A DNA stretch of 63,674 bases, filler included, from Platydemus manokwari (Eukaryota): the NCBI GenBank assembly GCA_037951405.1. It is 6 parts of 6 records of this genome, joined end to end, with 100 filler letters (N's around TTAATTAATTAA, not from the genome) between each part and the next. Parts side by side here need not be neighbours in the genome. Positions count along the whole stretch, not along the records: positions 54,413 to 63,674 come from JBBMOY011275873.1; 5 more parts are not named here. One strand, written 5' to 3'. Shown here piece after piece: positions 10,553-61,982 of this stretch. The notes beneath the pieces are model-generated. The model made no database searches, was not told the origin of the DNA, and worked only from the letters and a program-made list of their open reading frames with translations. How positions within the stretch are numbered: the first letter of the stretch is position 1; the number at the start of each line of letters is the position of its first letter. The translations under genes were made by a program, and so were the position numbers.

Positions 10553-11869
10553 TTACATACTTGTTTCATGTAATAATTCAACTTTTAATGCTTTATCTTC
10601 TAGTGGAAAATTATCAATATTTTTATTAGGGGTCATAGTATAATCTTTGACATATTTATTCTCTTCGGTAAAACAAAATGTTTTCATATACTGACTATCA
10701 ATAATGTTAGTGCTTCGAGATTCTATGTTTACCAATCGTTTGAGAGGACCACATTTGCATAAACAACACGATTTATACAATAAACGAATGGCTTCTTGAC
10801 GAAATTTCGGCCCACTCATACAGTAAAGTAAAAAGTGTACAGCAAAATTCAAATACCACAAAGTGTAAAGAAGTCTTTCAATACCGAAAATCAAGCCATT
10901 CAATCTACTCTCAAATTGTAACATGATAGTATTAATGTGAGGTACAAAGAAAAGAATGTTGTATGATAAGAGTGGGGTTGTGGACACCAAAAAAAATATA
11001 TTGACAGATAAGAGCATCTTTGTTAGACTTGTTGTCTGCTTATCTCTTGATCGTCGTCTTGTCGACCTCTTTGCTACTTCAAACGGTATTATTTCTTCAT
11101 CATTTTTGCATTTGACATGCTTTCGGTTGGGAATTTGGGTAATGGCAACTGAATTCGAAATCGTTGCCGCGTTTTGTTTAGTTGATTTCATCCGTTTTCT
11201 TATTCTTTCCATTTCTCGAAGTTTGGAAATTATCAAAATATTCGCTACTGACATTATGATGAATGGCAAACCCATGATCAATGTCAAATCAATATATGGA
11301 AATCCATTTTGGAAATAATTTTTAATATTGCATTTGTTCAAGCCGTTCTCTTGATAAATAAATTCCAATGTCCACACAAAATGAATATCAATCAATATAA
11401 ATACACCAACTAACAAGACAACAACAATTTTGGCAATTTTCCGAGTACAAATCATTTTAGCTCGAAAAGGAAATATGACCCAGATCATACGATCTATAGC
11501 AACCGATACTAGCAACCATACACTGATGTAGGTGAGAGTGTAACGGATGATATTCAACGAATAACAAGATAGTGCATGCTCTTCTCTAACTTTTTTCGGG
11601 AATAAAAACGCAAAATTAAACATCTGCCCCCCAAGACTAAAAATTAAATACAAAATATCGATGAATGCCAAAGCGGTAAGATAGAATGTTGTACTACTGT
11701 TATTCAGTTTCGGTGATACAAGAACAGCAATTGTTAGACAATTTCCAAATAATCCAAAAGTCACGATAATTGCCCACAATCCAATGCACGTTTTACGAAT
11801 TGTGTCAATGGAAGCTGGAAATGAAAATGTGCCATTAAATGTGATATTAGATGGGTATGTTTTGTTCAT
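10553..11869 (-). CDS. Intronless rhodopsin-class (class A) GPCR, FMRFamide/peptide-receptor-like, 438 aa
   Basis: Intact ORF with seven hydrophobic segments: GLFGN (TM1), YLTALAFID (TM2), SVAIDRM (DRY variant), LPFIIM (TM5), FFLVSTTP (TM6), NFAVHFLLYCMSGPKFRQE (TM7/helix 8). N-terminal N-glycosylation sequons NKT, NIT, NGT. Confidence 0.95.
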   Translation of the reverse strand: MNKTYPSNITFNGTFSFPASIDTIRKTCIGLWAIIVTFGLFGNCLTIAVLVSPKLNNSSTTFYLTALAFIDILYLIFSLGGQMFNFAFLFPKKVREEHALSCYSLNIIRYTLTYISVWLLVSVAIDRMIWVIFPFRAKMICTRKIAKIVVVLLVGVFILIDIHFVWTLEFIYQENGLNKCNIKNYFQNGFPYIDLTLIMGLPFIIMSVANILIISKLREMERIRKRMKSTKQNAATISNSVAITQIPNRKHVKCKNDEEIIPFEVAKRSTRRRSRDKQTTSLTKMLLSVNIFFLVSTTPLLSYNILFFVPHINTIMLQFESRLNGLIFGIERLLYTLWYLNFAVHFLLYCMSGPKFRQEAIRLLYKSCCLCKCGPLKRLVNIESRSTNIIDSQYMKTFCFTEENKYVKDYTMTPNKNIDNFPLEDKALKVELLHETSM

Positions 11870-12846
11870 AATGAACGATTGAATCCAAAGTGATCAAAGT
11901 TTCATTATTGGGTGGTATTTTTCTGAATTTCCATTGGATCTATCTGAAATTATACAATCTTAAACTTGGTTAATATAATTTGAGAGAAATGATAATACAA
12001 AACTCGGAACTAATCAATACACAGATCACCAATGATGAAGATTGAAGGAATCTCTATTCATTGGAAAACATTAAGTCAACAAACATTTCAGGATGTGCTT
12101 TCCAATAATCTATGATCGACGAACCAATAGCTAAGTAGGAAGAATGAAAGATGTCGAATCACTATAAAGCGAATGCTTAAAGCTGTATTGATTTTAGTGA
12201 AAATTTCTCCGGGTAACAAAATTTGGAAAATAAATAAATCATAAATGAACTTATTAACTTATTGTTTCTCAATATAAACAATCATCATTTCTATATAGCA
12301 TTCAATTTAAGCACTGCGTGAAACTCATTTTTGTATAATAAAACTTTGTAATAAAACAAATAGATTTGTCATCTTCTCGTTGTTATCTTAGTAAAGAAAG
12401 AATAGATTAAATAAATTTTTAGATGAATATTTTATTAACAAGTGCCAACTCAAGTAAATCTGTCTTGAAAGAAAAGCTTTTAATGGATCATATTGATTTA
12501 TATCAAAATAGGAATCGAATAATCGAATGTAAAATTAAGATAAAAATTTCATTAAAATGTTAAAAATGATAATCATCTATTTTTCAGTTCAGTCATGTGA
12601 AACGGTAAAGCAATTTGATTATTTCTAAATTTATATAATTAATTAATTTCAATCATGACTGAAGCGAAATAAGAAATTGAAAATTAATTTGTCGGTTTCT
12701 TTTTTGCATTGATAATTATTTTGGTTAATTATGTAAAAGCATCCTAACATGTTTTGATCGTTTCATTATCATTACTATTTCATACTTTATTCATTTTTCA
12801 TCATTCTGTATTTATTCAATCTTTAAAATTTTTATTCCTTCAATGA

Positions 12847-14195: not shown

Positions 14196-17100
14196 TCACG
14201 AAATCATTTTAATCAACGCAGCTGATTTATCCTTGATACTGGGGACGCTGTCGTTGCTATAGCACTGGAGAAGTATCTTCAGTTGTTCTTTCATAAGAAT
14301 AAAGATCTCTGAAAGGTAACGGTAACCATAGTTATAATAATAACCAATCGATAACCTTGATTATTCAATAAAATTTCAATTGTATCCAAGCACGATTCTC
14401 TCAATTGTTTATATTTGCTCATTTCGGGAACGCGTTTCCACGATTTCAGCATTGCTTTGAGGCATTTTATAACAGATCCATATTGTTCACCTTCGGGATC
14501 CAACAACTTTCTGGTAGTGACTACCGACATCCTTAACACGGGTTGCAAATTAATTAATATCTCCAATTAATGAAGAGCAGGACATGATGTGGTATTTGTG
14601 GAGGGATTATTTTGCGAAGAAATATTCAAATATAATGATAACATGTGGTAAATGTGAAAGGTATTAGGATGACTGGAAACTTAACTACAAAGGTTCCTTT
14701 GCTTTGGACTTGAATGGCTAGATGAACAAATATTGGATTGGAGGTGGAATATGTGTATAAATAACACGAGATAGGTAATGGGAATGAAATGATTAATGAT
14801 TCATTTACAAATGACTCGAAACATTTAATTGTCATTCATAAGTCATGTTTCCCTATTTACAGGAAAACAGTGGGTTCCTGGAAAACCTTTGATAAGAGAA
14901 TACTAAGGGAGTTTCAAGCTTATAAAATTTTATTCGTATTTTGAAACACAACTTCCCGCATGTACACCACTTATTAATCTCGATGCCCATGGACCTAACC
15001 TTGTGTGATCAGTGGAACACTTGTATTATCAATAATTATTTCAGAGAAATCCCCGTCCCGAATATTGATTGATCAATAATATCAAATTTAATTTCAATAA
15101 CCATAATAATAATGATAATATATTAGCATTGCAGTACCAATCAATTTTAATCATCATGCTCATCATGATGATTGGATAATAAATCAATAATAAAATAATC
15201 AATATTGTGTACAGCTGAAATAATCAAATTGATTAATAATAATATTCCACAGAAAATCAATACAATACGTCATAGAGGGAAATCATTTGATTTGCTAATA
15301 GAAATTACTTTTTGAAAAGAGATTTGAAGCTCTTGAGAACAGCTATCTGCTGTTTCCATTGGCATTCATCCATGGCTTGAGATAACAGCTGTATGACGGT
15401 CACGAAGTGGGATTCTGAATATTAATGATTAACAATTATCTATGCCCGTGTTGTCATGGTAACAAAACCTTGAACATCGTCATAACTCTTTGGCCACATG
15501 TGTCCGACAACTCTCAACAACATTTCGCGCTCGGCAACATTAACTTGAGCTTCACCCTTCACTATAAGGGGCAACATCATGGGGAACAATGACGTCAAAC
15601 ATTCGTTGTCAAGGATATCCGATACCTTAGCAACAGCTTCGAAAGCTACACAGCGATAGGAAGTATCGCTCTTGCCGGTTTCTTTCATGAGAATCTGTAT
15701 CAACTAATAGCATATTCATTAAAATCGATATCGCACGTGGTGGAAATAATAAAATTTACTCGAGCTCGATCCTGAATGATATCAAGAAGTCCATTTTCAT
15801 CAAGTTGGCGCACAAAACTCATTGTAGCGTATAGCAGGTACACTTTTCCCGGCCAGAATTTCACCTGGAATATAAAGAATATCATTATTATTATTCTATC
15901 AGGTACCGTTAATGATGACGTGAAGGGTTATGATTAATCGATATACCTGAGTGAGAAGGGCATTCAAGAGAGCATTATGCAATTGCCCCCACAAACCGGT
16001 CTCTTGATTGGCCCATTGCCTGCCGATTCCTCTAACGAGAGACATCAACGATAAGCAAGCTTGAGTGCGCAAATGATAAAATGAGCTGCCAAGAGCTTCC
16101 GCCACACAAGCCAAAATGTGGGACATCATGCTCGTAATCACTGATCCCTCGGCTCGCACGCATTCCACCCATGTTTGACTCCACAAAGTTCTGCGCTTCT
16201 GGCAATTCTCGGTTTGCAAGGATAACTTTTTCTGCCCAGTCGAACCACTATCGTTGGTTTCAGGCTCATTCTATAGCGAAATAATTGACAATCGATTAAA
16301 ACAAAAATATCAATAAAATCACTTGTTTAGCCAAAAAGATGAGCGGTAAAGTTGTGACTGAATGGAGCTCAAGTGTTCCAGGAGCATATTTCTCGATACA
16401 GTGGTAAACATGACAACAAGCTAACTGATGCTCCTCGGAATCATGATTTTCAAAATACCAAGACCGAGTTATAACAAATAGCTTCTCGACACTCGATTTC
16501 TGAATGATAAAAATAGCTTGCAAGTATTGTCATTATTATGCCAAATATCATCAAAGCCAGCCCAAATATCAATCAAAATATCATCCCAAATATCATCAAT
16601 ATAATTCCAAATATAATCAATATCACCCCAAATATAATAAATATCACCCCAAATATAATAAATATCACCCCAAATATAATCAATATCACCCCAAATATAA
16701 TCAATATCATCCCAAATATAATCAATATCATCCCAAATATAATCAATATCATCACAAATATCATCAATATCATCCCACATATCATCAATATCATCCCACA
16801 TATCATCAATATTATCACAAATATCATCCCAAATATAATCAATATCATAAATAACTAATGGATTAATCAATATCATTCCAAATATAATCAATATCATCCA
16901 AAATATAATCAATATCATCCCAAATATAATCAATGTCATCCCAAATATAATCAATATCATCCCAAATATAATCAATATCACCCAAAATATAATCAATATC
17001 GTCCCAAATATAATCAATATCATTCTAAATATAATCAATATCATCCCAAATATAATCAATATCATCTCAAATATAATCATATCACAAATAATGGATTAAT

Positions 17101-20100
17101 CAATATTATCATCACAAAGATTATACCTTAGAATATTTCACCAGACAACCGATAGCCTTAGCCATTTCCCTCTGGACCACCTCATTTTTATCGAGCACTG
17201 CGTGTAACAAAGCAGCCAATAATTTCCCAGTAGCGCCCATTAATCGCGACCCACAATGTAAACTGAGATCGATGAGAAATTCTGCTGTACCGCATCTGGT
17301 GGCGAGACCGATACCATGGCGAACGATATCTGCCAGAGGAACAAGTAACTGAGCCTGTGTGTCATCCTCGATATAGCGAATACACTGTAAAAAGATGTCA
17401 AGATGAGAATTGTGTTATAATTTCAGGAGATATCGATTACCGATGTCAATATGTCACCAATAGGTGACTGTTTCGCCATATTGACCCGTTGCATGTCCCA
17501 ACGTTCTCGTGAGTCGTGATTGCCCATACCTGCCAGCTGCTGGCTGATATAGCTGCTCTCGCTCGATTCATGGCTACTGAGGGCTTGCAGGCAGGCAATA
17601 ACGATGCTCGGAACGGCACATCTGATTGCTGCACGCCCACTATGCACGATAACGCAAAGTGTGCTGAGAGCAAATTGGTGAACTTGTGGTAAATTGCTAG
17701 GCAGACCATTTTCGAGAAGCACCGGCACAAGACTCGACAACAAAGGCTCTACAGACTGCCGACGAGCTGGATCATCGAGAATGATGGTGCAGAACTGAAA
17801 TTCATCAAATAAATAGCAATCATATCGTTATTGCTGACCTTCTCCACACTCTTGGCAGTCTCGATAGCAGCATCTTTGATTTCAGATCTCGTGTCGTCCA
17901 TAACTCGAACGAGACATCGAACCAACTCGCCAATATCAGCGAGTATGAGTGGATCAGCAGATTCATGTTTAAGAAGTGCTCGAACTGCTCGACAACAAGC
18001 TTCTCGAACCCTGGCTTGATCACTTACTAGACCGTGACGCAATTCAATGATAATCTCCGGAAAGCATTTCCTAACCTAATCACCAATGGCAACCAACAGT
18101 AACCAATCACAGAAAAGATGTTTATAAAATTATTCATACCAATTCCTGATTGGGTGCAATCACACTCAAATTGTTCCATATTTGCTCCATTGCTTTTTGA
18201 GTTCGTGTGTGAGAATCAAATCGATATCGAAACAATTTCGGAACCATATTGGTGATATGGGGTTCCATTTCCTGGCTGTGTTGCATTAACATATGACACA
18301 AACCAATCGATGCCCCTCCACGAGCGGTCCATTTTCTCTGTCCACTAGCCAGTGGCATAAATGAATAAATAAGATCTGGTTGATTCAGTTCGTTTGCCAA
18401 TGAACACAGTTCTTTATATGTGGCTTTGTTAGATCTGTGCACATAACATCAATCACTATATCTGATATCTCGTCATCACTCACTCTCTAGCTTCTATCTC
18501 AGCATCCGTGAATTTCTCATCTTCTGGCAATCCAGTTTCCAATCGTCCTCTACAAAACCAAACAATACAGAAATCATTGAAAAATATTCTTTGTGAAACC
18601 TCTGTCCATGTAAAATGACTTGAATAAGTTCTTCTGACATTAATTTGCGTTCTGTAGAACTGCTCTGTTCATAAATGATGCCAAGAACACACGATGCGGC
18701 ATCTTGAGCGATTTCTGAGGATATAATGATAATCAAGAAACCATGACAACGAGTGATAGATGTCACCTTCTTTATCACCAAGAACAACCAAAATTCGAGA
18801 ATGTAACAAAGGCAGAGAAATGACAGAATGCCAGCCTAATTTTTGAACGAGATACAAGCTCCATACAGCAGCATTGTGTCGACTAATGCTGTTGCCTTGC
18901 GATAATATTTCGTGGATTTTATTCATAACTATTTGAAGATCTTTCGATACAGCTTTTTTGATGGCCGGTATTTTTTGTGTTGGTAAGGAAAACTGACGCT
19001 CATACCATCGACCTTTATAAGGTGAATAAGGTCCCATGATAATACTGACTATTGTTTGAGCTATAGTTTTATGCAATAATGGATCTTTGATCTGCAATTT
19101 TCAGTTAAATAATAGATCAATGATAAACATATGAATTATGATCATGTATTCATTATAGATACCGATATCAATAAATCATATTATTTCGGTTAAACAATTC
19201 CCGTTGATAAGAAGAATAAATAATAATTCTGCTACTTATTTAATAAAAGTTATACATATAAATATATCAGAATTATTAAATCTTTAAATAGCCAAGTATT
19301 TCTCAATGAACACGTGTTTCTCACAATGTTCAGGAATGTTTTCTTCCAATTTTCAAGTTATAAATGAAACACTTATTGCTCCTTGACTTTATTATTGAAA
19401 GGTTTATATGAATCACTACTTCATTGAGATATTATCGGTTTTAAATAGACTGAAAAAGCATTTAGACCAAGTATCACCCAATGAATGATAAAAATAAGCC
19501 ATATCGATTAAGTATCGCCAAATAATGATAATAATAAACTATATTGATCAAGTATCGCCAATTAATGATAATAATAAGCCATATCGATCAAATATCGCCA
19601 AATAATGATAATAATAAGCCATATCGATCAAATATCGCCAATTAATGATAATAATAAGCCATATCGATTAAGTATCGCCAAATAATTATAATAATAAGCC
19701 ATATCGATCAAATATCGCCAAATAATGATAATAATAAGCCATATCGATCAAATATTGCCAAATAATTATAATAATAAGCCATATCGACCAAGTATCACCC
19801 AATAGTTATAATAATGAGATATATCGATTACTTACCGAGTGTGTCTGCATCAGATGCTCCAAAATAGCCTGAGAATGTACAAAATTGTGCTCACCCATGC
19901 AAAGCGCTGATAATGTGTGCAATGCAGCATCCTTCACCTTAATAGGTGTGTTGGCACCTCGTATGAAACTGAATAAGATGATTTTATCAAATGATTCACA
20001 AAATATTTCTGTTACGTAAGACAATATTTGGCAAGGAGTGCCTTATTTGGCCACACAGATGACGCCTCATCGGAGAATTTACCGGCTGGTAAAAATGCGA

Positions 20101-42582: not shown

Positions 42583-45347
42583 CAATAATTTTGAAGAATT
42601 CATTTGAACTTGTTTCGATCTCTACATTAACGTCTTACCTTCACTATTCATATTAATGATTTTTGAAAATGTTGTTGCCCTTCGTTAAATAGTTGTAGAC
42701 GATTCATGCTCTTGTTTGATACGACAAAATTGGTGAACAATTTATCAGATATCTCGACATTTTTACATAAGTCGAATGAATGTGAAGATCTATTATTTTC
42801 GTATTATGCTCGTATTTTTATGTCTACTTCTGTTATTTTTCTTAAAAGCTGTAGGCTTTTTTAAAATCGAAATTGTGATTAAAATACTGTAATGATGTTT
42901 AATATAATTTTGACGAATGCATGACATCCAGATTCATTAATGAGTTGAAAAAGATTTTCTTAAGACTAAAAGAGTCTGGTGAATATTCCTCATGTCATGA
43001 TTGGATTTAAATTCTACTCCCTCAGCTTAACATTGGAAAATGTATACGGAATTCCAAACGTTGTTGATTTTGTTTAAAATAATTCTGACAAAATAGCATG
43101 AATATGACATGTTATCGTTCCTTAAAATACGTGGCAGTTGGCTATTTTACGGGGACTACCTGTATGAGATTTGTTTTTAATTTCTTATATTTGTATTTAT
43201 ACTATGTAACTCCTGATTCGTACGATATTTGACATAATTGTTGATGAGATCCATTGTGGATTTGATTACTCTATGAATTTATTTTATTTTATTTTTTATT
43301 CTAGAGTAGTGATTGGGCTGTAGGTTCGTGAGCAATTTTATAGATGTAAAACATTATTTAATAGATATACTAATCGAATAAATAATTTTGTTAACTATAA
43401 GTGACGCCTTTGTGTTTCTCGGAATAATTGGAGTAGATAACTGGATACAAGTTGGGTTGTGTGGTAATTTCATGTAGTTCCAAGGTGCTCAATAGAAAAT
43501 TAGTCCAATTCAACATCAATTTCGAATAATTTCAGTGAACTTAATCAGCTACTGAGGTCCATGGCAGCAAAATTAGTTTGATTCCAATAAAATTTATTTC
43601 TTCAAATCATTAATAATAAATTTCATCAAAGATATGTTTAAAATCAACAGTCAACCAGGATTCATTTATTTGAAATATAAATTTGGACAATTATTAGATA
43701 AAAATTTTATGAATAAAATTCGGGAGGCTGGGAAAATCAGCTGGACGATTTTAAAAAATATTTATGAATTAACAAATAAAAAAATAGACTTTGTGGGGAA
43801 CCATACTAACTATCCGAGAACCAAAAAAATCACAATCAAAACGTATAAAAAACTTAAAAATACAATAAAAACAAAGTTAACAAATTTTAACAAAAAATAT
43901 ACGTAAAATTTTTAAAAATTTATTTAAACGTATAAAAATTAAAAATTGTTTAATCAATCTCAAGATCATAAGAAAAAATTCCACAAAAATCTAAAAATAG
44001 AAATCACATCATATAAAAAAATAGAATAACAACAATTGTTGCTATAAATATCTACGTTAGCTGAAAATAATAACTTTTACAACAGAGTCGCCAAAAATAA
44101 TAACACGTGAGACTAAGCATAAAATAAATTAAAATAGTGTATAAACAAGTGGCACCATTTTATGCACAAAATTAATATAACTATTTCGAGTACAAATTTG
44201 TAACCACCATATTAATCGGACATTTATTCCACTGAATTTCCTTATTATTTTCAGTGTGAATTTTATTTATTATTCAGGCCAACTATTACTGTAATAATTA
44301 TGTTCAAAGTCTTGTGGTCTTTTAAAATCCAATTAGAAGCTTATACTTGGTTCTCCACCTTCTTTTATAAAGAGACCTTTTCGAGCATTTTATCTTGGGG
44401 ATACTGTGTTTATGTAATACAATTATATATTATCTGCTACTGTTATAAAATTATCTCAATTAATCGAATATATTTTACTGTTTTATTTTATAATCAGTAT
44501 TTATATTTCAAATATTATTTGATAATATCAAATGATTAAATTGAAGTCCAGATAAGTTAAAATTTTAAAAAACCTTCTGACACAAAGTTTATCAAATCTT
44601 TAACACTTCCAACTGCAGAATTAAATGAGTTTATAAATTTAATTTTTAGATTCCTCCTACTATATTTCTAGACAAGAATCTAAGGATAATAGTTGATACA
44701 TTAGACATCCAAACGATGTTTAAAATCGACTTACAGGTCACATATGCAATTCAAATTTATCTAAACACTGAATTATAGATTTTATATAGAAGAAAATCGT
44801 GTTTTAACCTATTTAGATTCTATAAAAGCGCTCGACAAATAATAAAACTGTCTTTCGCTATTTGTTGTGATTTATATTTGACAGAAATTTAGTAATAAAT
44901 CACTAAAATCGTATAAAAATAAAATAATAGTTATTGATGTGATCATCTATTTAATGATCTGAATATTTATAGTGTATGGATCTCCAGTATAAAATTAGTG
45001 AAGAAATCTGTTCGATAAATTGGTTCAACAAATCAAATATTTTAAAACTCCAATAATCATGGTATTGAGATTATTGATCAAATAAAAAATATGTGTGTGA
45101 GCATGGGAGATTGGTGATGAAAAAGTGATGAATAATATGGATGAATAAATTATTTCAGGATCTAATAAAATGACTGATAAAAATATCGAAAATAATAACA
45201 ATCATAACATAATCGCAATGAAAATCTTCACAAAAGCAACAGAACCCGCAGAAGAGATTTAATTATGATCTAATCAATAAATTAATTTTGTTCTGAACTT
45301 CTGACGGTTTATGATCAACACTTGAAGATACCGATTATGGAATATAA

Positions 45348-51560: not shown

Positions 51561-54312
51561 AGTTTTATAGATGTATTGATTGGTAAGAGTAATAGAAATA
51601 AAGTTTGCAACCTTTGATTTTTGGTGTTAGTAATTATTTAGTTATCCAGAATTTAGTACCTACAGTATGGATGGTGAAGGATATTAATTGGAACTCAGAT
51701 TGGACGTAACCTTTATGATAAATGTCTACATCTTTCACAATAAATTTCTAAAACACGGCAGAAACCGAGCCTTATCAACCGATGGATTAAGTTAGAAAAT
51801 TGGGTCTTGGATCAAGACAAATGAGCTCTTTGAAAGACGTAGTTTAATAAGGGTAAAGTCCCAAAGAAATCATAAAAAATCCGGACTTAAAAGGTCTGTG
51901 TTGGATGGCTTACTTGTTTTGTAATATTTTGGAAATTCGCATGGGTTAAAATTTGAATCAACTATAATCCAAAAAATTCTCTCTTATATTTTTCCTTTTC
52001 ATATCCGGAGAATAGAAAATACACGGAATATTCTGAGAATTTATTCAAAACTTAGTTTCTGGATCAGGTTCTGAATATACCACAAAGATTTTGCTGACAC
52101 AAAACCATTAAAAAGACAACAAAAATTTCGAAGTTCAAGCCATCATTTCAAGCCATCATTATTTGACAACCGAAGAAATTATCTCTCCTTCAATTTTATG
52201 TAAAGTGGTAAGCTAATTTAAGGATTCATTGTAAAATAACAGATGATTTTGTTACTAGAACAATGTCTTCTGAAAGAACAGGTGTTTGTGTTCTGCATAT
52301 TAGGCCCATGAATATTGTTAAGAACAATGATATGCAATGATAGTCATACTGGTTTTAGAATATCTTCAATCCATGTTGTCATTGACTAAAAACTATTCAG
52401 AGGTAATTCTTGCAAATTTTAAATTTATTTTAAAGACTTTCAATTATAAAAAATAAATTGTAAAACTTGTTTTGAAAAATCTATGATAAAATTTATTTTA
52501 TATGGAATTCTTAAGTTTGTATTCAATTAAAAACTTAAGCCAAATAATACTGGCTAACAGATGCTTCTATTTCAAAGGACCACAACGTAAAAATTCAAAT
52601 ATAAATCTTTCCTAATCTGTTCTGATTTCGAAGCGCTTTTCTTCATGACTATAAAGATAGAGAATAATATAAAAAATCTGAGCCAAGTCAGAATTACCAG
52701 TGAATTCGATTAAATCAAATGGAAAATATATATAACGGTTTATCTAATAAAGCTGCACTGTCATATTGTCAGCTAAATCGCACTAATGATCAATTATCGT
52801 CGTTCTCAAAAGAGAATAGCGTTTACATCTGTCAACTTTCTTTAAGATCTTAAATTTCTTACTTCAAAAATCCATTCTTTCATCATTTCCTCATCACGAA
52901 ATATCATTAAATAATAATAAATTACACACCGAAATTGTTATGTTTGATATGAGTAAGTCTATATGAATTAGAGCAATTAATCGATATTAAATACCATCAA
53001 ATTTGATGGATTTAAAGAGGAATGATAGACTAAAAATAGAAAATAAATTTTATGTATTATAATTAGACTTGTGATTGGATTTATAAAAAGTGGATTCTTA
53101 AACAAGACCAATTTGTTCCCTTCTTAAACGGTTTGTATTTAAAGGTATGGAGTCAAAGCAACGTTTTAATCAATAAATTTTGATCCAATAAATTATCAAA
53201 CAGAAAATTTAAAACATATTTCAAATTCATCTCACCGAACTTACCATATTAGCGAAATTATCCTAATTGGAAGATAAGTCTATATTATATCCTACATGTC
53301 GGAGTTGTCTACGCCTTAAGTAATGAAAATAAGCAACATAATATATCGGTATTTTCCAATAATTTTTTCACGGCTTCATTGCATAGTTTTCCAAAGTGAT
53401 TTCATTGTAAACTGCTCTTTAATTTAATTTTCGGACTACTATTTAATTCAGTAAAACAAATAAATATTTGATGCTTCATATGAAATATCGCTCTAACGAT
53501 AACAGTTAAAGTAGGATGATATTTGTAGTTGATTTTGTTGATATTAATCAATAAATTTAAAGTTTCTTTCAACCAATCTACTTGGAGCTAATAATAGTAA
53601 TAAACATTATTATTGGAAAAGTTACAAGGCATTATTGAAAGAACAATTAGCAATTCCAACATGTTGTAAACCGATAAGATATTTTTGTAGTCCTTTTTAC
53701 AAATCTGTATAAAATATGATCTGGACTTCATTATTTCACAACTCGCTTATTAGTCAATACAAATCCACAGCATGCCTTGTCCATGGGTCATGGAAATTTG
53801 TTTGAAAAGCATTTTGATTCCATATCAATAAAGCTCTCAAAATATTTATTCTTAATTTTTCAAAAGCAACAATTGTTTAGTTTAGATTTGAAATGATTCA
53901 AACCCATTTGTGATCGTTCACGTTATTAATTCCTAATTCGCTAATCTACCATGTGAGTAGTAACATAAGTCAGTCCTTTGCGGCATAGAAAAAATTAAGA
54001 AAATATATATTTCACACCGATTAGGTATTCAGTCCATTACCAACCCGTACAAGAAATAAATGGAATGACATTTAAAAATAAAAGATGTACTTACAAAATT
54101 AGAGATAATCTGACTTCGATAAATTATTTCCGAGTAAAATGTTTGGTTAAACTGATAAAAACAATCTATAATAGAGAATTCATGCTTTTAATAATTAGAG
54201 AGTAAATATGCTAGCGTGAAGATCTATTGATTATTTATATGTATGCTATCCCTTTAGGTAGAATATACATGTTATATTTTAATAGTAAATGATATTAGAA
54301 AAAAGGAAAAAA

Positions 54313-54412
54313 NNNNNNNNNNNNNNNNNNNNNNNNNNNNNNNNNNNNNNNNNNNNTTAATTAATTAANNNNNNNNNNNNNNNNNNNNNNNNNNNNNNNN
54401 NNNNNNNNNNNN
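54313..54412. other. Artificial contig linker
   Basis: N44-TTAATTAATTAA-N44. Confidence 0.97.
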
Positions 54413-54507
54413 TTAAAAATATATATAACACATGTATATAAAACATCTTCATTTGGTAAAAAAGCAATTGGACAAAATGATGTAGAAAACCGGAAAGAAC
54501 TTTTGGT

Positions 54508-55160
54508 TCACCCTAATATTTGATAAACTATCATTGGTTCTCCCGTGTCACAACTGATTTCATACGCTGTGCAAATTGGATGCGTCATCATTTTCCTGGT
54601 AGGTAAGTCGAACGCTACTTGAAATTTTCTAAGTTGAACTTGATTCTCGCGTTCTACTATTGCATTTTTTATTGTTCGACCCCATATACTGTATAGTCTT
54701 CCGGCACAGTATCCTGATGTTTGTTTCCATCTGACTATATTTCTTTGTTGTCGTATTATCGCTCCTGGTTTTACAATTAATTCTATGCCGTGAATTTTAA
54801 AAATTTTTGTTTGAAATTCATGTTCACATTCTATTGGCGTCACTATAGCTGCTATTGCACTCCATCTTGGCTACAGTTTTTTCGTATATCCTCCATTTTT
54901 TGAACAATAGAATACAAACTCTTGGTATGTAACTATGCACTCTTTTGTCTTTGTTTTTATGAAGTCTCCTTCTTGATATGCATGCAATAATTTCTTCCCT
55001 TCCTGTACCAGGAACACAGGATTTGACTCCGAGCAATCCTCAACATCTAACATAGTTCTGCCCCATTTTTGGCTTTGCGCAGTCAAAGGCTACTAAAGTG
55101 TTGGCCTCTCCATTTATTTCGAAAATGGTCATTTTGACAAGTATCACCTGCATAATGATC
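54508..55160 (-). pseudogene. N-terminal ~215 aa of a chuvirus-like (class III fusion) glycoprotein, env-like; one frameshift (~55062) and one in-frame stop (54871-54873)
   Basis: Reconstruction: IIMQVILVKMTIFEINGEA-NTLVAFDCAKPKMGRTMLDVEDC...ECIVTYQEFVFYCSK...VTPIECEHEFQTKIF...SGYCAGRLYSIWGRTIKNAIVERENQVQL...HPICTAYEISCDTGEPMIVY. Cys order and flanking residues follow the chuvirus glycoprotein pattern (AYDC...LDVxxC; CxxxxxxxxxxCG; GxCxGxxY..G...VxV; CxY...CxD). Confidence 0.7.
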
Positions 55161-56060
55161 GGATTGTCTTTGGCCAATTTTTTAGCTTTCTTTATGGCCT
55201 CTTTTTGTTTGGTTTCTTTCATGATTGGACTGCTCGAGTCGGTTGATGACTCGTCACTTTTTTCTAAAAGAATCTTTTTTAGCGGTGGCTTGCCTTTTAT
55301 TTTTTTGGTTTTTCCATTTAAATTTCCTGGTCGCTATGACTTTCGGCAAAAATCTTTTTTCGTGGTTGTTTGTACGGCACTTTAAATCCTGACTCGTTCC
55401 CCCCAATTAGTGTTCGATTTTCTTATATATCTTTATTATTTGATTATCTCTATCTGTTTGGGCCTTCTCCATTCTTCTTGTTTTTTCGTAATTTTCTCTT
55501 CAAAATTTTTGAATCTTTCATTCCACATGGCCTCATCGTGACCACACTGTGATGGGATATAAGATAGAGATGGCCTGATCTTTGAATCATCATTCATATG
55601 GCTTGTTCCTGCTATCGGCTAAGTGGTTATTGGCTCTGTATTGGTTGCCTCTGGTGATGGTATTTCCCAGCTATATGTGGTCTGAGCATTTGGTTGTTTG
55701 TAGTACTCAGGCATATAGATCGGCCCTTCTAGTGGCTCTCGAACCAATTATTCTCTTTCTCCAGTTGTCGTTGATTGATGAGTTGATCCTATCTTTTAAA
55801 CAGCCTAATGATTGGTTCCACCTGTCGAGCTACCATCTCTGCGGGTTGGCCAATTGTTATTATCTGCGTCACTGGGGCATGTTTGATCAGTGCCAATATG
55901 GCAATTACCTTTTCACAGATACTTTATTTCGGCTGTCCTTTTTTGTTTTCATCATGCTGGTTAATGTCTCTCCATCTTCACTAGTAACACTATAATCTTC
56001 ATCGTTGAGGTCGACTGACCATGTTTTAGTCATAGTTTGAATCTGATATTGTTAGGCAGA

Positions 56061-56606
56061 TTTTCGCCAGATCTGTATTTTATTTGGCCATGGAACAGAA
56101 AAATTATTGATCATTTGTTGTCGTCCTTCTATTTCCTTCCCTTCGTATATGACCTTTATGGTTTTTTCTTCTAATTCTTTAAATGACCATTCAACATGTA
56201 ACCATTTCAACAAACAATCTGTTACTGCTAGTGCGGGCACTTCTGCATGTCTTTCTTGTTCTTCCCCGGTTACATTATTTATTGCAATCATTTGTAACCT
56301 GATTGTCGGGAAAGCATTTTCTGTTATTGGTAATCCATCTGCTTCATCTGGTAATAATTGCACTTCGATAAAATTATCGTGTATTTGCAGCGTGTCTTTG
56401 TCGATCAAATAGTCATAATCCAGTATTTTTCTGCCCTCGTAGGTCATATTAAATGTAGTGCAAATCATTCTCTTTTTCATTAAGGCTTCATAAAACCATT
56501 TCCGCAGTTTTCTTCTAGTAGCACAAGGGTGAAAGTTATGACAACCATTTATTATGTGTTTATTATCCCATTCATAATAATACAAAGCGGTGATCGATAT
56601 TGTTTT
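56061..56606 (-). CDS. Two tandem ubiquitin-like (beta-grasp) domains within the retroelement polyprotein (ORF 56052-56705)
   Basis: Domain 1 FHPCATRRKLRKWF...MTYEGRKILDYDYLID aligns with ubiquitin VEPSDTIENVKAKI...LIFAGKQLEDGRTLSD. Domain 2 reads AEVPALAVTDCLLKWL...IKVIYEGKEIEG. Neither has a C-terminal GG. Confidence 0.6.
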
Positions 56607-57128
56607 ATAGCATTCTTTATGTTGTCTAATAAATTTTCCCATTATTTCATTTACGTCGTGGTACTTATCACTCTGCTCTCCGTATAAATATATGTTATCT
56701 TTCACAACGTTGATGTGGTAAAATATCTCTTATTTCTGCCTCCTTTAGGTCTTGTGTTAATGCATCTGATATAAGATATATAGTTTCATCGATATGAATT
56801 AACATGTCCTTGCCCCTTCTTTATGCTTTGTTTTTGTTTGTCCAATTCTTTGTCAACGAATTCAAATATATCGCTTATCTCTGCTATTGTAAGCTGTATA
56901 GGCTCCTTTTTGTCTTGTGGTATCTGACTCGGTTTCCATTTTAACTTTTCTATTAATAATTCTTGCGTATTTCTATCATCTGTTTTGCAGCATTTATCTC
57001 TTCTTCTGCGGGATGTATTACCTGATCTGCCATCGTTTTAAGATCCATATTTTTTGGTACATGTTTTATCTCTTCTGCTGGAAGTTCTTGCTGTGTCTCT
57101 ATTTTATTTTGATCATTATCCTACTGGT

Positions 57129-58071
57129 TTACGGTTTGCACAAATTTGCGCTCCCCAATGTGGCGTTTTTTATTCTGGCATCATCTAATTCCATTCTCAA
57201 CGTCGCTAACTCCTCATTTTTGGTTACAGATTCTATTCGTTTTGTTTCAGCCTGTTTGATTTTCGTCTCATTTGGTTCATCTTTATACCATTTGGGACAC
57301 GACCTTGCTCGTGGCTCGTATTCACTACAATAATAACATTGGATATGCCCTTCCTGGTTCAACTTGTCTCTCGTGAACCCTGGACTATTAGCTCTATTTC
57401 TAGGATTATACCGTCCAACTTCTCCTGTAAAGGCTTCTCTTTTCCAATTTGCCCCATTATAATTCTTATATGTACCATTATTCATTTCACTTCTTTGCAT
57501 CACTATCATTATTATTACGGTTACAGTCATTTCTCGCCCTTCTCGTCTGGGAATTATCTCTACTGTTCCACTGATAATTGTTTCTCGGTTTTATATTATC
57601 ATTATTGTTCCAATTATGATTGTTTCCTCGTTTTCAATCGCCATTATTTCTCCTAGTTTCCAATTCCCATTATTATTAGACATATTTCTGGCATTTTGTT
57701 CCTTCTGGAATCGCTCTAATAAACTTTTAAAATCTTGTCACTTGAAATCTTGCCTTGAAATCTATTTCTAAATGCCTCGGTATACCTTGCCTGTAAATCT
57801 TCTTCCATAACTATTTCTCGTTTCATCGCCTCTTTAACTCCATTATACGGTAAAGATTGTAACTGGTGGCCTCTTAATAAATTTTTATAAACATCGAATG
57901 CGTATCCTTTTAAATGAAAAGGTAATCTCGCCAGTCTCTGCACGTCATTCCATCCTTAGACTTCTGAAGTTGCTTCATATCCATAAAAAAGTCATTAAAT
58001 TCATCTGCTTTTCCGGAATATATTTCTATAGTTGGTAGTTTAACAACGTTATTTAACCTATTATCTTCCAT
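57129..58071 (-). pseudogene. gag: Retroelement gag: capsid N-terminal part, Asn/Arg-rich spacer and degenerate CCHC zinc knuckle
   Basis: Across frameshifts: MEDN...KLPTIEIYSGKADEFNDFF...GWNDVQRLARLPFHLKGYAFDVY...FRNRFQ, then an N-rich tract, then CYYCSEYEPRARSC (57338-57297; CX2CX4[H>P]X4C). The C-terminal half of the capsid appears deleted near 57720. Confidence 0.82.
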
Positions 58072-58245
58072 ATTATTTCCAGCGTAAATGTTTCTATTTC
58101 TTAACCTATAAATTATTCGATTTTCCAACGCGATTGATTTTAATTAATTAACAACGACTTTTCACAACAATCAATACTTTTATATCACAAACGAATTCGA
58201 ATTTGACGAATTGCACACAGAAATTAATTATATTATTTGACGGTT

Positions 58246-58265
58246 GAGTCCTCACTCGGGCACCA
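58246..58265 (-). promoter_or_regulatory. Primer binding site TGGTGCCCGAGTGAGGACTC
   Basis: Begins TGG (complement of tRNA CCA) 8 nt inside the LTR end. The complement GAGTCCTCACTCGGGCACCA parses as T-loop end, T-stem, acceptor strand, discriminator A and CCA. Confidence 0.8.
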
Positions 58266-58273
58266 AATTTATA

Positions 58274-59239
58274 TGTTGGGTTTTGGTACTTATATGTTTG
58301 TATTCCCAAAACCGGTGAGTTCTTAAGATTGATCTGATTTGAATTCAAATCAACCCTCTCGATTATCAGTATGTTATACTATAAACAATAATACCTAATA
58401 ATACAAATAGTAAATTGGACTATTAATCAATAAATCAAAATGAAGACGGTTTAATAAGAAAATTCCACTATTTAAATCAATATTACAAGATGTTCAAAAT
58501 AATTTACAATTGACAATAATTGATAGATCGGACAAACAAGCAAAATTATTTAATTTACACCAAACTGGATTTTGACTCAAACAAGTTAAGGTTTGGGAGT
58601 GGCCGATTCGAATTTAACGAAACGACCTATATATTAAGATTTTAGACAAATATAGATTTTAAAATATATTATTTCAGTTTCGGCAGCCTCAGAACCTTAG
58701 AATTCACTCCTTCTTGTCGTAATATACAATATTTCCAGCACTTTTGCAAAAGACGTTTATGAGCTTTCTTCTGTTGATTAAACTTCCTTCTTGAGATTAA
58801 AACGGTCGTCGGCAGTTTGCTTCTTTTAAATTTTCAGTTGTTTCTACAAGTTTTCTTTCTGCTTTTAGATTTTCTAAATGTTTGTGTTTAGATATTTGTG
58901 AGCGAAAAATAATGATTTTAGGTGCCTATTTATAGTATTTTAGAATTGGAAAATTCGCTTTAGAATTTTAAAATATTTTTATTTTTCCCAAAAATTTAAT
59001 TCTATTATTTTATTATTTCTATTAAATAAATTCTGTTAATTATAGACTTTTAGAAATTCCAACGAATTAATTTTGGAATTTTTACACATTTCTAAAATTC
59101 TATATAAATTAAATTTAATTTTTTATTATTGTTATTTTGGGAGCGCTATTTATTATTTTTGTTGTCCGATTTATTCTTAAAGTTTATTATCGTTAAAATT
59201 TCCATTATAATAATTGTCATTAAAATATAATTTGTGACA
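58274..59239 (-). repeat. Candidate 5' LTR (~966 bp)
   Basis: Minus strand starts TGTCACAAAT (59239) and ends CCCAACA (58274), giving TGT...ACA termini. Contains a TATAAATAG TATA box (~58926-58934) and is immediately followed by the PBS. The outer boundary is inferred without a second LTR. Confidence 0.65.
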
Positions 59240-59369
59240 AATACATTATGCAAATATTTGAATACAGTATACATTTAAGTAAGGATTTGAGAATTACATA
59301 ATATAAGATACAGATTAGAGACAAAATCATGAAATAAATCAAATGTACGGATTAAATGTGAGTTTTTAT

Positions 59370-59697
59370 GAGAATTTAAGATCGTCTTGTTTGTCAAGAT
59401 CCACACTTTTTGCCCACAATCGGGAATTCTCCTCTCTCAGATCTGTTGGGATTATTGACTCCGTCTTAATTGTTTCCTAGAGTTCTCTCAGGCCAACCTT
59501 CTCGGGCTTATTCCAACGATAAACCATTCAATCCCAGTTGCCATCTTGATTGAGCTCAATCCTTTCATTGGCATTTGTGGCTGTTATATTAGATGTGCTT
59601 GGAGCATTGGATGGTATATGATAGGTTGTGCTTGGGGCGTTAGAGGGCATAAGATAAGATGTGCTTGGGACGTTAGAGGCGCTTTCCCAACAATGCC
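59370..59697 (-). pseudogene. Decayed coding fragment with a 33-bp tandem repeat (PSNAPSTxYxx x3)
   Basis: GC-richer island preceded by TTCAG on the minus strand. Reads HCWESASNVPSTSYLMPSNAPSTTYHIPSNAPSTS...NWD*MVYRWNKPEKVGLREL*ETIK with two in-frame stops. Confidence 0.4.
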
Positions 59698-60360
59698 CTG
59701 AATTTATATGTAACTATTGTACATACTATAAATGCAACTGCTGCCTTATCTAAGCACGTATGAATCACTCTATGATTATTATTTGATAAGATGCGTATTA
59801 TTGTGGCAAAGAAATTTTATTACACAATTGTTCTAAAGTTGGAAACTTTTGGAATACCCGATGAAAAATTTATTAACATTTCGGCAGAACATTTTTAAGT
59901 TCTCTTTCTAAATCTTGCAAATTAGGGACGCTATTTTTTCTAAAAGCTTGAACAATTATTTGAAATGGTGAGAATTTTATCTTGAAAATTTATATAGAAT
60001 TGACCTTTTTTATTTTGTCAATATCGGTTGTTTTTTAACAAAGATTACTCGAAGAATAACTAACGTTATGCGATCGAACACTAAGTGATATGATAAATAC
60101 ATCATAGTTTGTTAAATACAAAATTACATCATTTCGAAACCATAGTTTGCAAATCTCATATTCAAATATAAATCACAAATATAAAATAATAAGTTGTATA
60201 ACAATTATTATTTATTAGAAATTAATAAAACATGATTTAACTGCATAGTACAAATAATTTTCTGTATTAAAATCAAGTTAAAACCTTGGTATAAATAGAT
60301 TTAATCGAACAAAAATATTCAATGTTTCGGAAATTAACATCTCCATCATTTTATAGTAAA

Positions 60361-61982
60361 ATGTCAAATCATTTAGAAAATCGATCCCGTTTTGTTTATA
60401 TAATAATTTAATAAAATTTTTAAATGGGTTTTCTAAAAAAAGTTTTCGTTTTCAGTGCTCTAGTTTTAGTTGGATCGATATTTGCTTATCAGTTTTTAAA
60501 TGAACATCAGATTTCTTCAATATCGATGACAACTTTATTTACAATTACGAAAATAGTAAAATAAATTTCTTCCTCTTCATTTTAATTCATTTTTGAGGAT
60601 TTATATTTGAAATCTTACTTTGGCATCAATGGATTCTACCGTGGTTATGAGAAATTTATATCAAACATGATATATAGCAAGGTCAATAGTTCTGGATTAA
60701 AGGTAAAGTGAATAATAAAAATATAAATTTATTATGAGAATGATATGCAGATTGATATACAACACTTCGATGAAGTGGAGGTTTTAATTTTCAGTCCTCT
60801 CAAGTATAAATCAAAACGACCCGCTATCATTCATTTGCATGGAAGCGGCTGGATCTATTTTAGTCCAAGTTTTTTATTTGATTTTTAATAAAATTTGTAA
60901 TAAGAATATTTCTCCGATTGTTAAGAGGTTTATTCACCGTACTTAGCCGATCTATCTCGTCGATTAAACATATTAATTGTATCCATAAAGTGAGAAAAAA
61001 CCAAATCACTGGTTTTTAGATATATTTCTTCATTACAGTTATCGAAAAGCTCCTGAACATCCATTTCCCGCTGGTGTCACAGATGCCATTGTTGCCACTA
61101 AATATTTCATGGAAAATGCTGAAAAATATGATGTGGATCCGAATCGAGTAGCTTTGATGGGTGGATTAAAATGATTTATGAAAATTTTGGTTTATCAATT
61201 TTTGTTATTTGTAGGAGAAAGTGCTGGTGGTAATTTAGTTGTTTGTGTTGGACATCATTTGGCTTCCATGTTGAAGCTTGGTAAAATTATGAGAGCACCT
61301 AAACTTCTAATTCCAATTGTACCAGCATTTCAAATGGTAGATATGAACACACCATCATTGGTTGATGACAGTCGTGATGAAATATTGAAAAAGTCAGAAT
61401 CTTGCTATTATTTCATGATTGATATAATAAACATTTCAGAGAATGGTGTATGAGTATGGTTTGTAATTATGTGTTTGGAGAATTATCGACTACTGAGCTC
61501 CATGAGTGTATGAATGTGGTGTCAACCAACAATCATTTGAGTGAGGTGGTTGTTAAGAAAGTGAGAGACAATGTTGATTGGAAACAATATTTAAGAGGAA
61601 AGTAATAAATTGATGAATTAAATTCGATATTGAGCAATTTAATAGTGATTACGACAATGTTCCGCAGAGTACTTTCAAATTCACAACGAATAAATTTGTA
61701 AAGAGATTCTCTGAATTGGTTCAAGATCCTTTGTTTTCACCCATGTCAGCTCTGAACAACAGTGATCTTGAGATATTACCACCAGTGTATTTGATAGCGG
61801 CTTCAAAAGATCCATTGAGAGATGATGCTAAAATATTGGCAGCAAGATTGGCGAAAATGAAACGAGGAGAGCTGAAAGAATTTAATTATTCTCATGTTGG
61901 TATTTTGAAGCCTGAAAATTTCGAAGAATATTTTGACTATTTGTTTTCGGTATTGAAAAGACAAGGTTTTACCGAAATTTAA
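60361..61982 (+). CDS. Arylacetamide deacetylase / NCEH1-like esterase (hormone-sensitive lipase family alpha/beta hydrolase), multi-exon
   Basis: Spliced exons give an N-terminal hydrophobic anchor, PAIIHLHGSGW (HGGG-type oxyanion motif), NYRKAPEHPFPAG, VDPNRVALMGESAGGNL (catalytic Ser), SPM, DPLRDD (Asp) and YSHVG (His). The first exon and start codon are tentative. Confidence 0.9.

Follow-up and report, generated by a model that had tools for sequence, protein, structure and literature searches.

A broken env-like gene in DNA of the flatworm Platydemus manokwari, lying downstream of a broken gag, raises the question of where such a gene came from and to what kind of element it belonged. 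The window, by which is meant the whole stretch of DNA analysed (63,674 nt), consists of six contigs with five identical N spacers between them and has a GC content of ~25%. The element lies on the last contig (54413-63674), at whose end stands the N spacer 54313-54412. An initial annotation had proposed that env represents an independent capture of a viral fusogen. We consider the locus, with a probability of roughly 85%, to be what is likely left of a dead Ty3/gypsy retrotransposon of a flatworm, belonging to the known gag-env-pol kind, with the 5′ third of a class III (gB-type) env, itself broken, placed after the broken gag; the intact form is predicted to have encoded one polyprotein from which Env would have been freed by host signal peptidase. 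Since pol, a second LTR and a target-site duplication were not found within the window, the Ty3/gypsy class and the single-ORF layout are taken from relatives with 21–48% identity.

Table 1. Features of the element on the last contig, in order from the candidate LTR to the contig end.
Feature	Position	Strand	Evidence or remark
Candidate 5′ LTR, ~1.4 kb	58274..59692	-	7-bp inverted repeat ends TGTTGGG...CCCAACA
PBS-like motif TGGTGCCCGAGT... (TGG)	58248..58265	-	8 nt past candidate LTR end
Broken gag with capsid-like part, tract rich in Asn/Arg and a single degenerate zinc knuckle	57129..58072	-	tblastn
225-codon open stretch; probable ubiquitin/SUMO-like domain ~56600-56350, possibly a second ~56306-56055	56052..56729	-	profile, hhalign
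Broken spacer; Bcl-2-like domain suspected by eye ~55940-55730	55334..56051	-	unsupported
Lys-rich tract and internal signal sequence	55097..55333	-	aligned to same segment of P0015-P0018 and P0033
N-terminal ~30% of gB-type/Monjiviricetes-type class III Env (fusion-domain region)	54517..55096	-	frame break ~55050, stop 54871-54873
T-rich stretch between end of env homology and contig end	54413..54516	.	~100 bases

The env fragment and its fold

The env region is spread over three stop-to-stop pieces on the minus strand (55040-55333, 54871-55089 and 54508-54870), with an in-frame TAG at 54871-54873. The three fragments and the stop codon are thus present as the initial annotation had described them, together with all of the motifs that it listed. 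It had also placed a frameshift in a run of G near 55062. The break is real, but it lies a few codons downstream, at ~55050, because tblastn alignments of the relatives P0015, P0016 and P0030 follow the upstream frame down to 55052, most relatives enter the downstream frame at 55056, and the G-x-x-Y/F motif conserved among relatives falls in the upstream frame. Homology to env ends at ~54517, about 30% into the 653-position Pfam profile PF24664, and the rest of env, pol and the 3′ LTR are absent from the window. A few relatives align on to 54457 through one more cysteine in tblastn, a T-rich and gapped extension that is probably due to chance.

These many breaks, with the cut-off near 54517, make it very likely, as judged from the sequence, that the present copy is dead and can make none of the products proposed below. 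Being broken and cut off, it falls outside the intact-ORF inclusion rule of the published errantivirus set. The same damage bears on the idea that env, or gag and env together, has been domesticated as a gene serving the host, for which one could cite the seven intact cysteines and a host alpha/beta-hydrolase gene ~1 kb from the candidate LTR. The mature start is followed within 65 codons by a frame break and a stop, gag and spacer contain many further breaks, and the gene is cut off before the stalk and anchor, all of which makes domestication extremely improbable.

What remains of env can nevertheless be classified. The two downstream pieces each match PF24664 (Monjiviricetes_fusion) weakly and in colinear order (profile positions 39-87, E 0.022; 106-194, E 0.0052), and when they are read together with X at the internal stop (P0001, 193 aa) the match reaches 32.2 bits (E 3.8e-8), against a cut-off of 27 bits. 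These colinear matches are far beyond chance. P0001 had no sequence match in the PDB, and a word-index protein search with the env fragment returned nothing from 113 candidates. Whole three-frame translations read through with X matched 0 Pfam families, a scan that is uninformative because it missed env itself.

An AlphaFold2 model of P0001 (pLDDT 82.5, pTM 0.70) was built with 20 relatives, and shows the fold of the family rather than that the present copy folds. Foldseek returned 24 matches at E≤0.001 among viral models, led by Wenling crustacean virus 14 (E 3.3e-10, TM 0.63, 18% identity); the best, which are glycoproteins of chu-, qin- and xinmo-like type, have E 3e-10 to 4e-6, TM 0.58–0.67 and 10–18% identity. 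Against the PDB, class III fusogens accounted for all 44 of the matches listed, none of which reaches E 0.001. In an all-against-all structure aligner, class III chains fill the best 10 of 50 matches, the first being HSV-1 gB residues 156-358 (Z 8.0, rmsd 3.8, 129 aligned residues), while the first unrelated match has Z 4.1. We take these gB residues to be domain I, the fusion domain. The proposal of a class III, gB-like glycoprotein of the chuvirus/Monjiviricetes type therefore stands, the profile and structure checks suggested for it having given a Pfam score above cut-off and matches to both chu-like glycoproteins and gB.

A HMMER search over 1.84 billion proteins yielded 30 relatives at E≤0.001, of which 26 contain PF24664 at E≤0.01 and 24 score above its cut-off. 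The conservation of the cysteines, on which the initial annotation had laid weight, extends to all seven of those in P0001 across 23 aligned relatives (19/19 to 23/23 non-gap rows, with one exception at one position), seven short matches having been left out of the alignment.

Candidate LTR, broken gag and probable accessory domain upstream of env

The candidate LTR has a 33-bp tandem repeat (2.7 copies) near its start, and GC rises from 0.28 to 0.50 at its left boundary. A second CCCAACA at 59450 leaves the right end of the LTR uncertain, and the adjacent PBS-like site favours 58274. By eye, this site agrees at 10 of 12 positions with the end of tRNA-Lys(UUU), and in its last 8 of 12 with the ends of tRNA-Met(CAU), as these appear in supplement rows of PMC13524379. 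At ~1 kb from the candidate LTR and in the opposite direction begins a multi-exon host alpha/beta-hydrolase gene (60727-61982, plus strand; Abhydrolase_3, E down to 2e-11).

A Ty3/gypsy-type gag with a single zinc knuckle had been suspected upstream, and tblastn bears this out. P0014 matches at 57979-57761 (E 3e-5) and P0033 more weakly (E 0.005), and the knuckle at 57356-57294 is matched by P0014 (E 0.06) and P0016 (E 0.011). The knuckle is degenerate, its cysteine spacing being kept and its histidine lost, and the gag region has no Pfam match. Tandem duplications of 42 bp and 26 bp lie in its Asn-rich part (57553-57674). Between the gag ATG and the env signal there are 971 codons. When eight relatives bearing protease or RT were used as tblastn queries, no pol was matched at E≤1 within 54000-60000, the interval between gag and env included, and the pol-bearing relatives match no pol anywhere in the window.

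A SUMO/ubiquitin-like domain is probably present between gag and env, in the 225-codon open stretch, as judged by profile comparison. With a profile of five such segments from relatives, this stretch came out at the top of 426 window segments (only 9 bits, domain E 0.036), and in hhalign none of 100 shuffles scored as high as its first repeat. A second repeat is possible: when the two repeats were compared with each other, 1 of 100 shuffles scored as high, and when the second was compared with the relatives' profile, 17 of 100 did. Atlas leads pointed to ubiquitin/Rad60-SLD clusters at 0.87–0.89, which have low recognition value. The 225-aa ORF had no Pfam match, a word-index search of 339 candidates returned nothing, and its single-sequence fold was unusable (pLDDT 35).

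A Bcl-2-like domain in the broken spacer is not supported, as neither Pfam nor a four-sequence profile matched it and 28 of 100 shuffles scored as high in hhalign. Such a domain can be made out by eye in four relatives, and weakly by Pfam in P0017 (E 0.00096).

Relatives, known elements and the origin of env

The relatives supply the layout that the window lacks. Eleven of them are at least 748 aa long, and eight of these run in frame from env into an aspartic protease and/or RT, every one that runs well past env continuing into a Ty3/gypsy protease or RT. Four of the eight carry the Ty3/gypsy-type set of RT, RNaseH and integrase, while the other three long relatives stop inside env or within 37 residues of its anchor. 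A zinc knuckle precedes env in three of the 11. By eye, a motif in the 365 residues that precede the env signal of P0038 suggests a DEDD-type exonuclease rather than gag. In an unrooted tree that includes no viral sequences, P0012 and P0013 (44% and 48% identity) form a group with the window env (support 100/99); these two closest relatives are short fragments without context.

Several relatives have peculiarities of their own. P0015, P0016, P0018, P0019 and P0042 contain two to seven aspartic-protease-like repeats per polyprotein, some of which lie beyond the integrase, and have additional hydrophobic segments close to the C-terminus. P0021 comprises env, protease, RT and integrase in one complete polyprotein; its record assigns it to a Flavobacteriaceae MAG as a hypothetical protein, and it is likely animal DNA in a bacterial bin. 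In P0039, the N-terminus of env is joined to a mitochondrial ribosomal protein L47 domain, which is probably a chimeric gene model.

Elements of this kind have been described. Chary and Hayashi (2026; PMC13524379) present nine flatworm GAG-ENV-POL elements with a gB-type env, six of them from Schmidtea mediterranea, in 1–215 copies, and argue for ancient inheritance. As in the window, the gB-type env of Smed_errantivirus_3 and the other flatworm GAG-ENV-POL elements directly follows gag. The Env of Smed_errantivirus_3 is the closest named sequence, with 78 of 160 residues identical (~49%, a hand count on the alignment row in the supplement of that paper), compared with 31–38% between it and its five sister families. 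All six cysteines within these 160 residues are shared and match the Smed C1a rows, the rest of the window ectodomain being missing. The pattern C-x6-C-x-TG-x-x-hydrophobic, judged by eye, is common to the window and Smed envs, unlike the three mosquito BEL rows of the same source. The reported span of Smed_3 is 14,544 nt, of which 2 x 3,000 nt is flank, leaving ~8.5 kb of ORFs, which fits the 2.9 kb from gag to env in the window plus 2 kb of env and 3.5 kb of pol. The window differs in being a broken, cut-off single copy, probably of another species, with a candidate LTR and PBS, neither of which was called for the six Smed families. Nematode gag-env-pol elements (Sacco et al. 2022, as cited in PMC13524379) have the same gene order and env class, with separate pol clades, and belong to another host phylum.

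These comparisons speak against the proposal of the initial annotation that a flatworm Ty3/gypsy element made a lineage-specific, independent capture of a chuvirus glycoprotein, and equally against a chuvirus EVE that would have landed in a gag-only element. The top structural matches among viruses are indeed chu-, qin- and xinmo-like, and the G gene of Jingchuvirales is reported to have been endogenised repeatedly in arthropods (PMC10084718). Jingchuvirales/Monjiviricetes glycoproteins and the Anakin env of mosquito BEL/Pao elements also share PF24664 and the predicted class III fold with the window env. Their identity is only 10–18%, compared with 44–49% for the retroelement-type envs, and the window env stands in a gag-first LTR element whose relatives carry Ty3/gypsy pol. 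The internal signal and its spacing match retroelement polyproteins, none of the 30 relatives has a viral N or L Pfam domain, and a pattern search of IMG/VR viral contigs gave no related locus. Either event is thus very improbable; most likely, as sequence comparison suggests, Env was inherited within the element lineage and not newly taken from a chuvirus. Because the element is likely of a gag-env-pol kind already described in planarians, the locus is an ordinary one and not a new gene capture. Pattern scans of metagenome contigs likewise gave no related locus, and a search of sequencing runs gave one run with 0.45 of the words and, among the matches listed, no RNA runs.

A BEL/Pao (Anakin) layout was also considered and rejected, since env directly follows gag in the window and the relatives carry a Ty3/gypsy Pfam set after env.

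The size of the element is a separate matter. Planarian Burro/GYPSM1 joins gag, a SUMO-like domain (PF11976), Bcl-2, env and pol in one ORF; its env matches mononegavirus fusion glycoproteins and is described as the first case of an in-frame env between gag and pol (PMC6431247, Arkhipova and Yushenova 2019, citing Grohme et al. 2018). The window could accordingly be a cut-off copy of such a giant element (>30 kb, with a ~4,900-aa polyprotein containing MATH, SUMO-like, Bcl-2, env, ankyrin and BIR domains) rather than of a compact one of 11–12 kb. The shared order of domains, with env between gag and pol (in frame in Burro) and a likely SUMO-like domain upstream in the window, is consistent with this, as is P0042, a cluster member of 4,844 aa that has ankyrin and several protease repeats in addition; with the 3′ part missing, the size of the window element is not measurable. 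The window, however, has one degenerate knuckle in its three-frame translation instead of two to three, although decay could hide others, and shows no MATH or Bcl-2 match and no BIR. Its candidate LTR is just 1.4 kb long, and its env falls with P0012 and P0013 rather than in the P0015/P0016/P0019 group, whose cluster includes P0042. Set against Burro as described there, the window element is probably compact, and a giant Burro copy is unlikely.

A model for the release of Env

The compact gag-env-pol reading leaves the question of how Env would be separated from a polyprotein. A hydrophobic stretch precedes the N-terminal [YF]DC motif in 18 relatives. In the window the signal-like segment that had been noted is present but weaker than in 17 of these 18, its best 11-residue Kyte-Doolittle mean being 2.03 compared with 2.11–3.68. 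The signal-peptidase site predicted in the window, preceding L at 55096, has A in position -3 and T in position -1. Small residues at (-3,-1), three residues before [YF]DC, occur in 17 of 18 relatives against a background of 10%, where the site was chosen post hoc and the relatives are not independent; in 14 of the 18 it is preceded by over 100 residues of the ORF. All 11 long proteins checked have an anchor at env+516 to +538. The suggestion that signal peptidase releases Env from the polyprotein is therefore upheld as an inference by the conserved site, whereas the Lys-rich tract linked to it is not conserved: among the 14 relatives that have an upstream stretch, K+R clearly exceed D+E in only two, P0018 and P0028.

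In an intact element, translation would yield a single polyprotein, and host signal peptidase would free Env from it. Gag and the accessory domains would be made in the cytosol, the internal signal would then thread Env into the ER and be followed by cleavage at the (-3,-1) site three residues before [YF]DC, and the anchor ~530 residues later would halt transfer. As the anchor would stop transfer, Pol would stay cytosolic, to be released by the protease of the element itself. Env trimers would allow particles to fuse with nearby cells, stem or germ cells for example. Both this fusion activity and cell-to-cell spread are inferred from the fold and by analogy with the Drosophila errantiviruses; entry by a gB-type env is described as unknown in the sections of PMC13524379 available.

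A more general proposal is offered tentatively, at rather less than even odds. These elements may be compact flatworm retroviruses with a single-ORF, flavivirus-like polyprotein that begins with Gag and tandem SUMO-like domains and continues through the internal signal, class III Env and anchor to Pol. Host signal peptidase would free Env, and the remaining signal stub would tether Gag to the membrane, so that capsid assembly would be coupled to budding with Gag:Env:Pol in a fixed ratio. The conserved internal (-3,-1) site and this topology were not found in the available portions of PMC6431247 and PMC13524379 or in one literature search; the words polyprotein, ubiquitin, Bcl and in-frame do not occur in the available text of PMC13524379.

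The locus adds a further dead copy to an element type already published, env matches of which have been counted in three triclad genomes. Among these, PMC13524379 counts 5 ENV-POL env matches in Dugesia japonica and 20 in Girardia tigrina, and in the model planarian some Smed families number as many as 215 near-identical copies. For a lineage in which none was called, the window supplies a candidate LTR with its primer site, and the conserved internal signal-peptidase site and anchor provide a testable processing model for single-ORF gag-env-pol elements.

Other contigs of the window carry further features. A GPCR gene (10553-11893) has 10 homologues; the only one with a named organism is that of Fasciola gigantica, at 38% identity, and the closest reach 79–82%. 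These matches point to a flatworm host, probably a triclad. A 246-aa ORF on the minus strand (36396-37136) has a C2H2-like motif and the sequence VIYADYE, which we take to be as in the N-termini of Polinton-type polymerases, and it has no Pfam match at E 0.01. Several diverged inverted repeat pairs of 56–125 nt (within 29993-30464 and 41614-41931, and within 37678-37992 and 43966-44542) are likely copies of small DNA transposons. Finally, a long HEAT-repeat-like host gene, presumably ECM29-like, contains 21-bp and 40-bp tandem arrays at 16469-17163 and 19398-19877, and the 21-bp array gives rise to spurious long ORFs.
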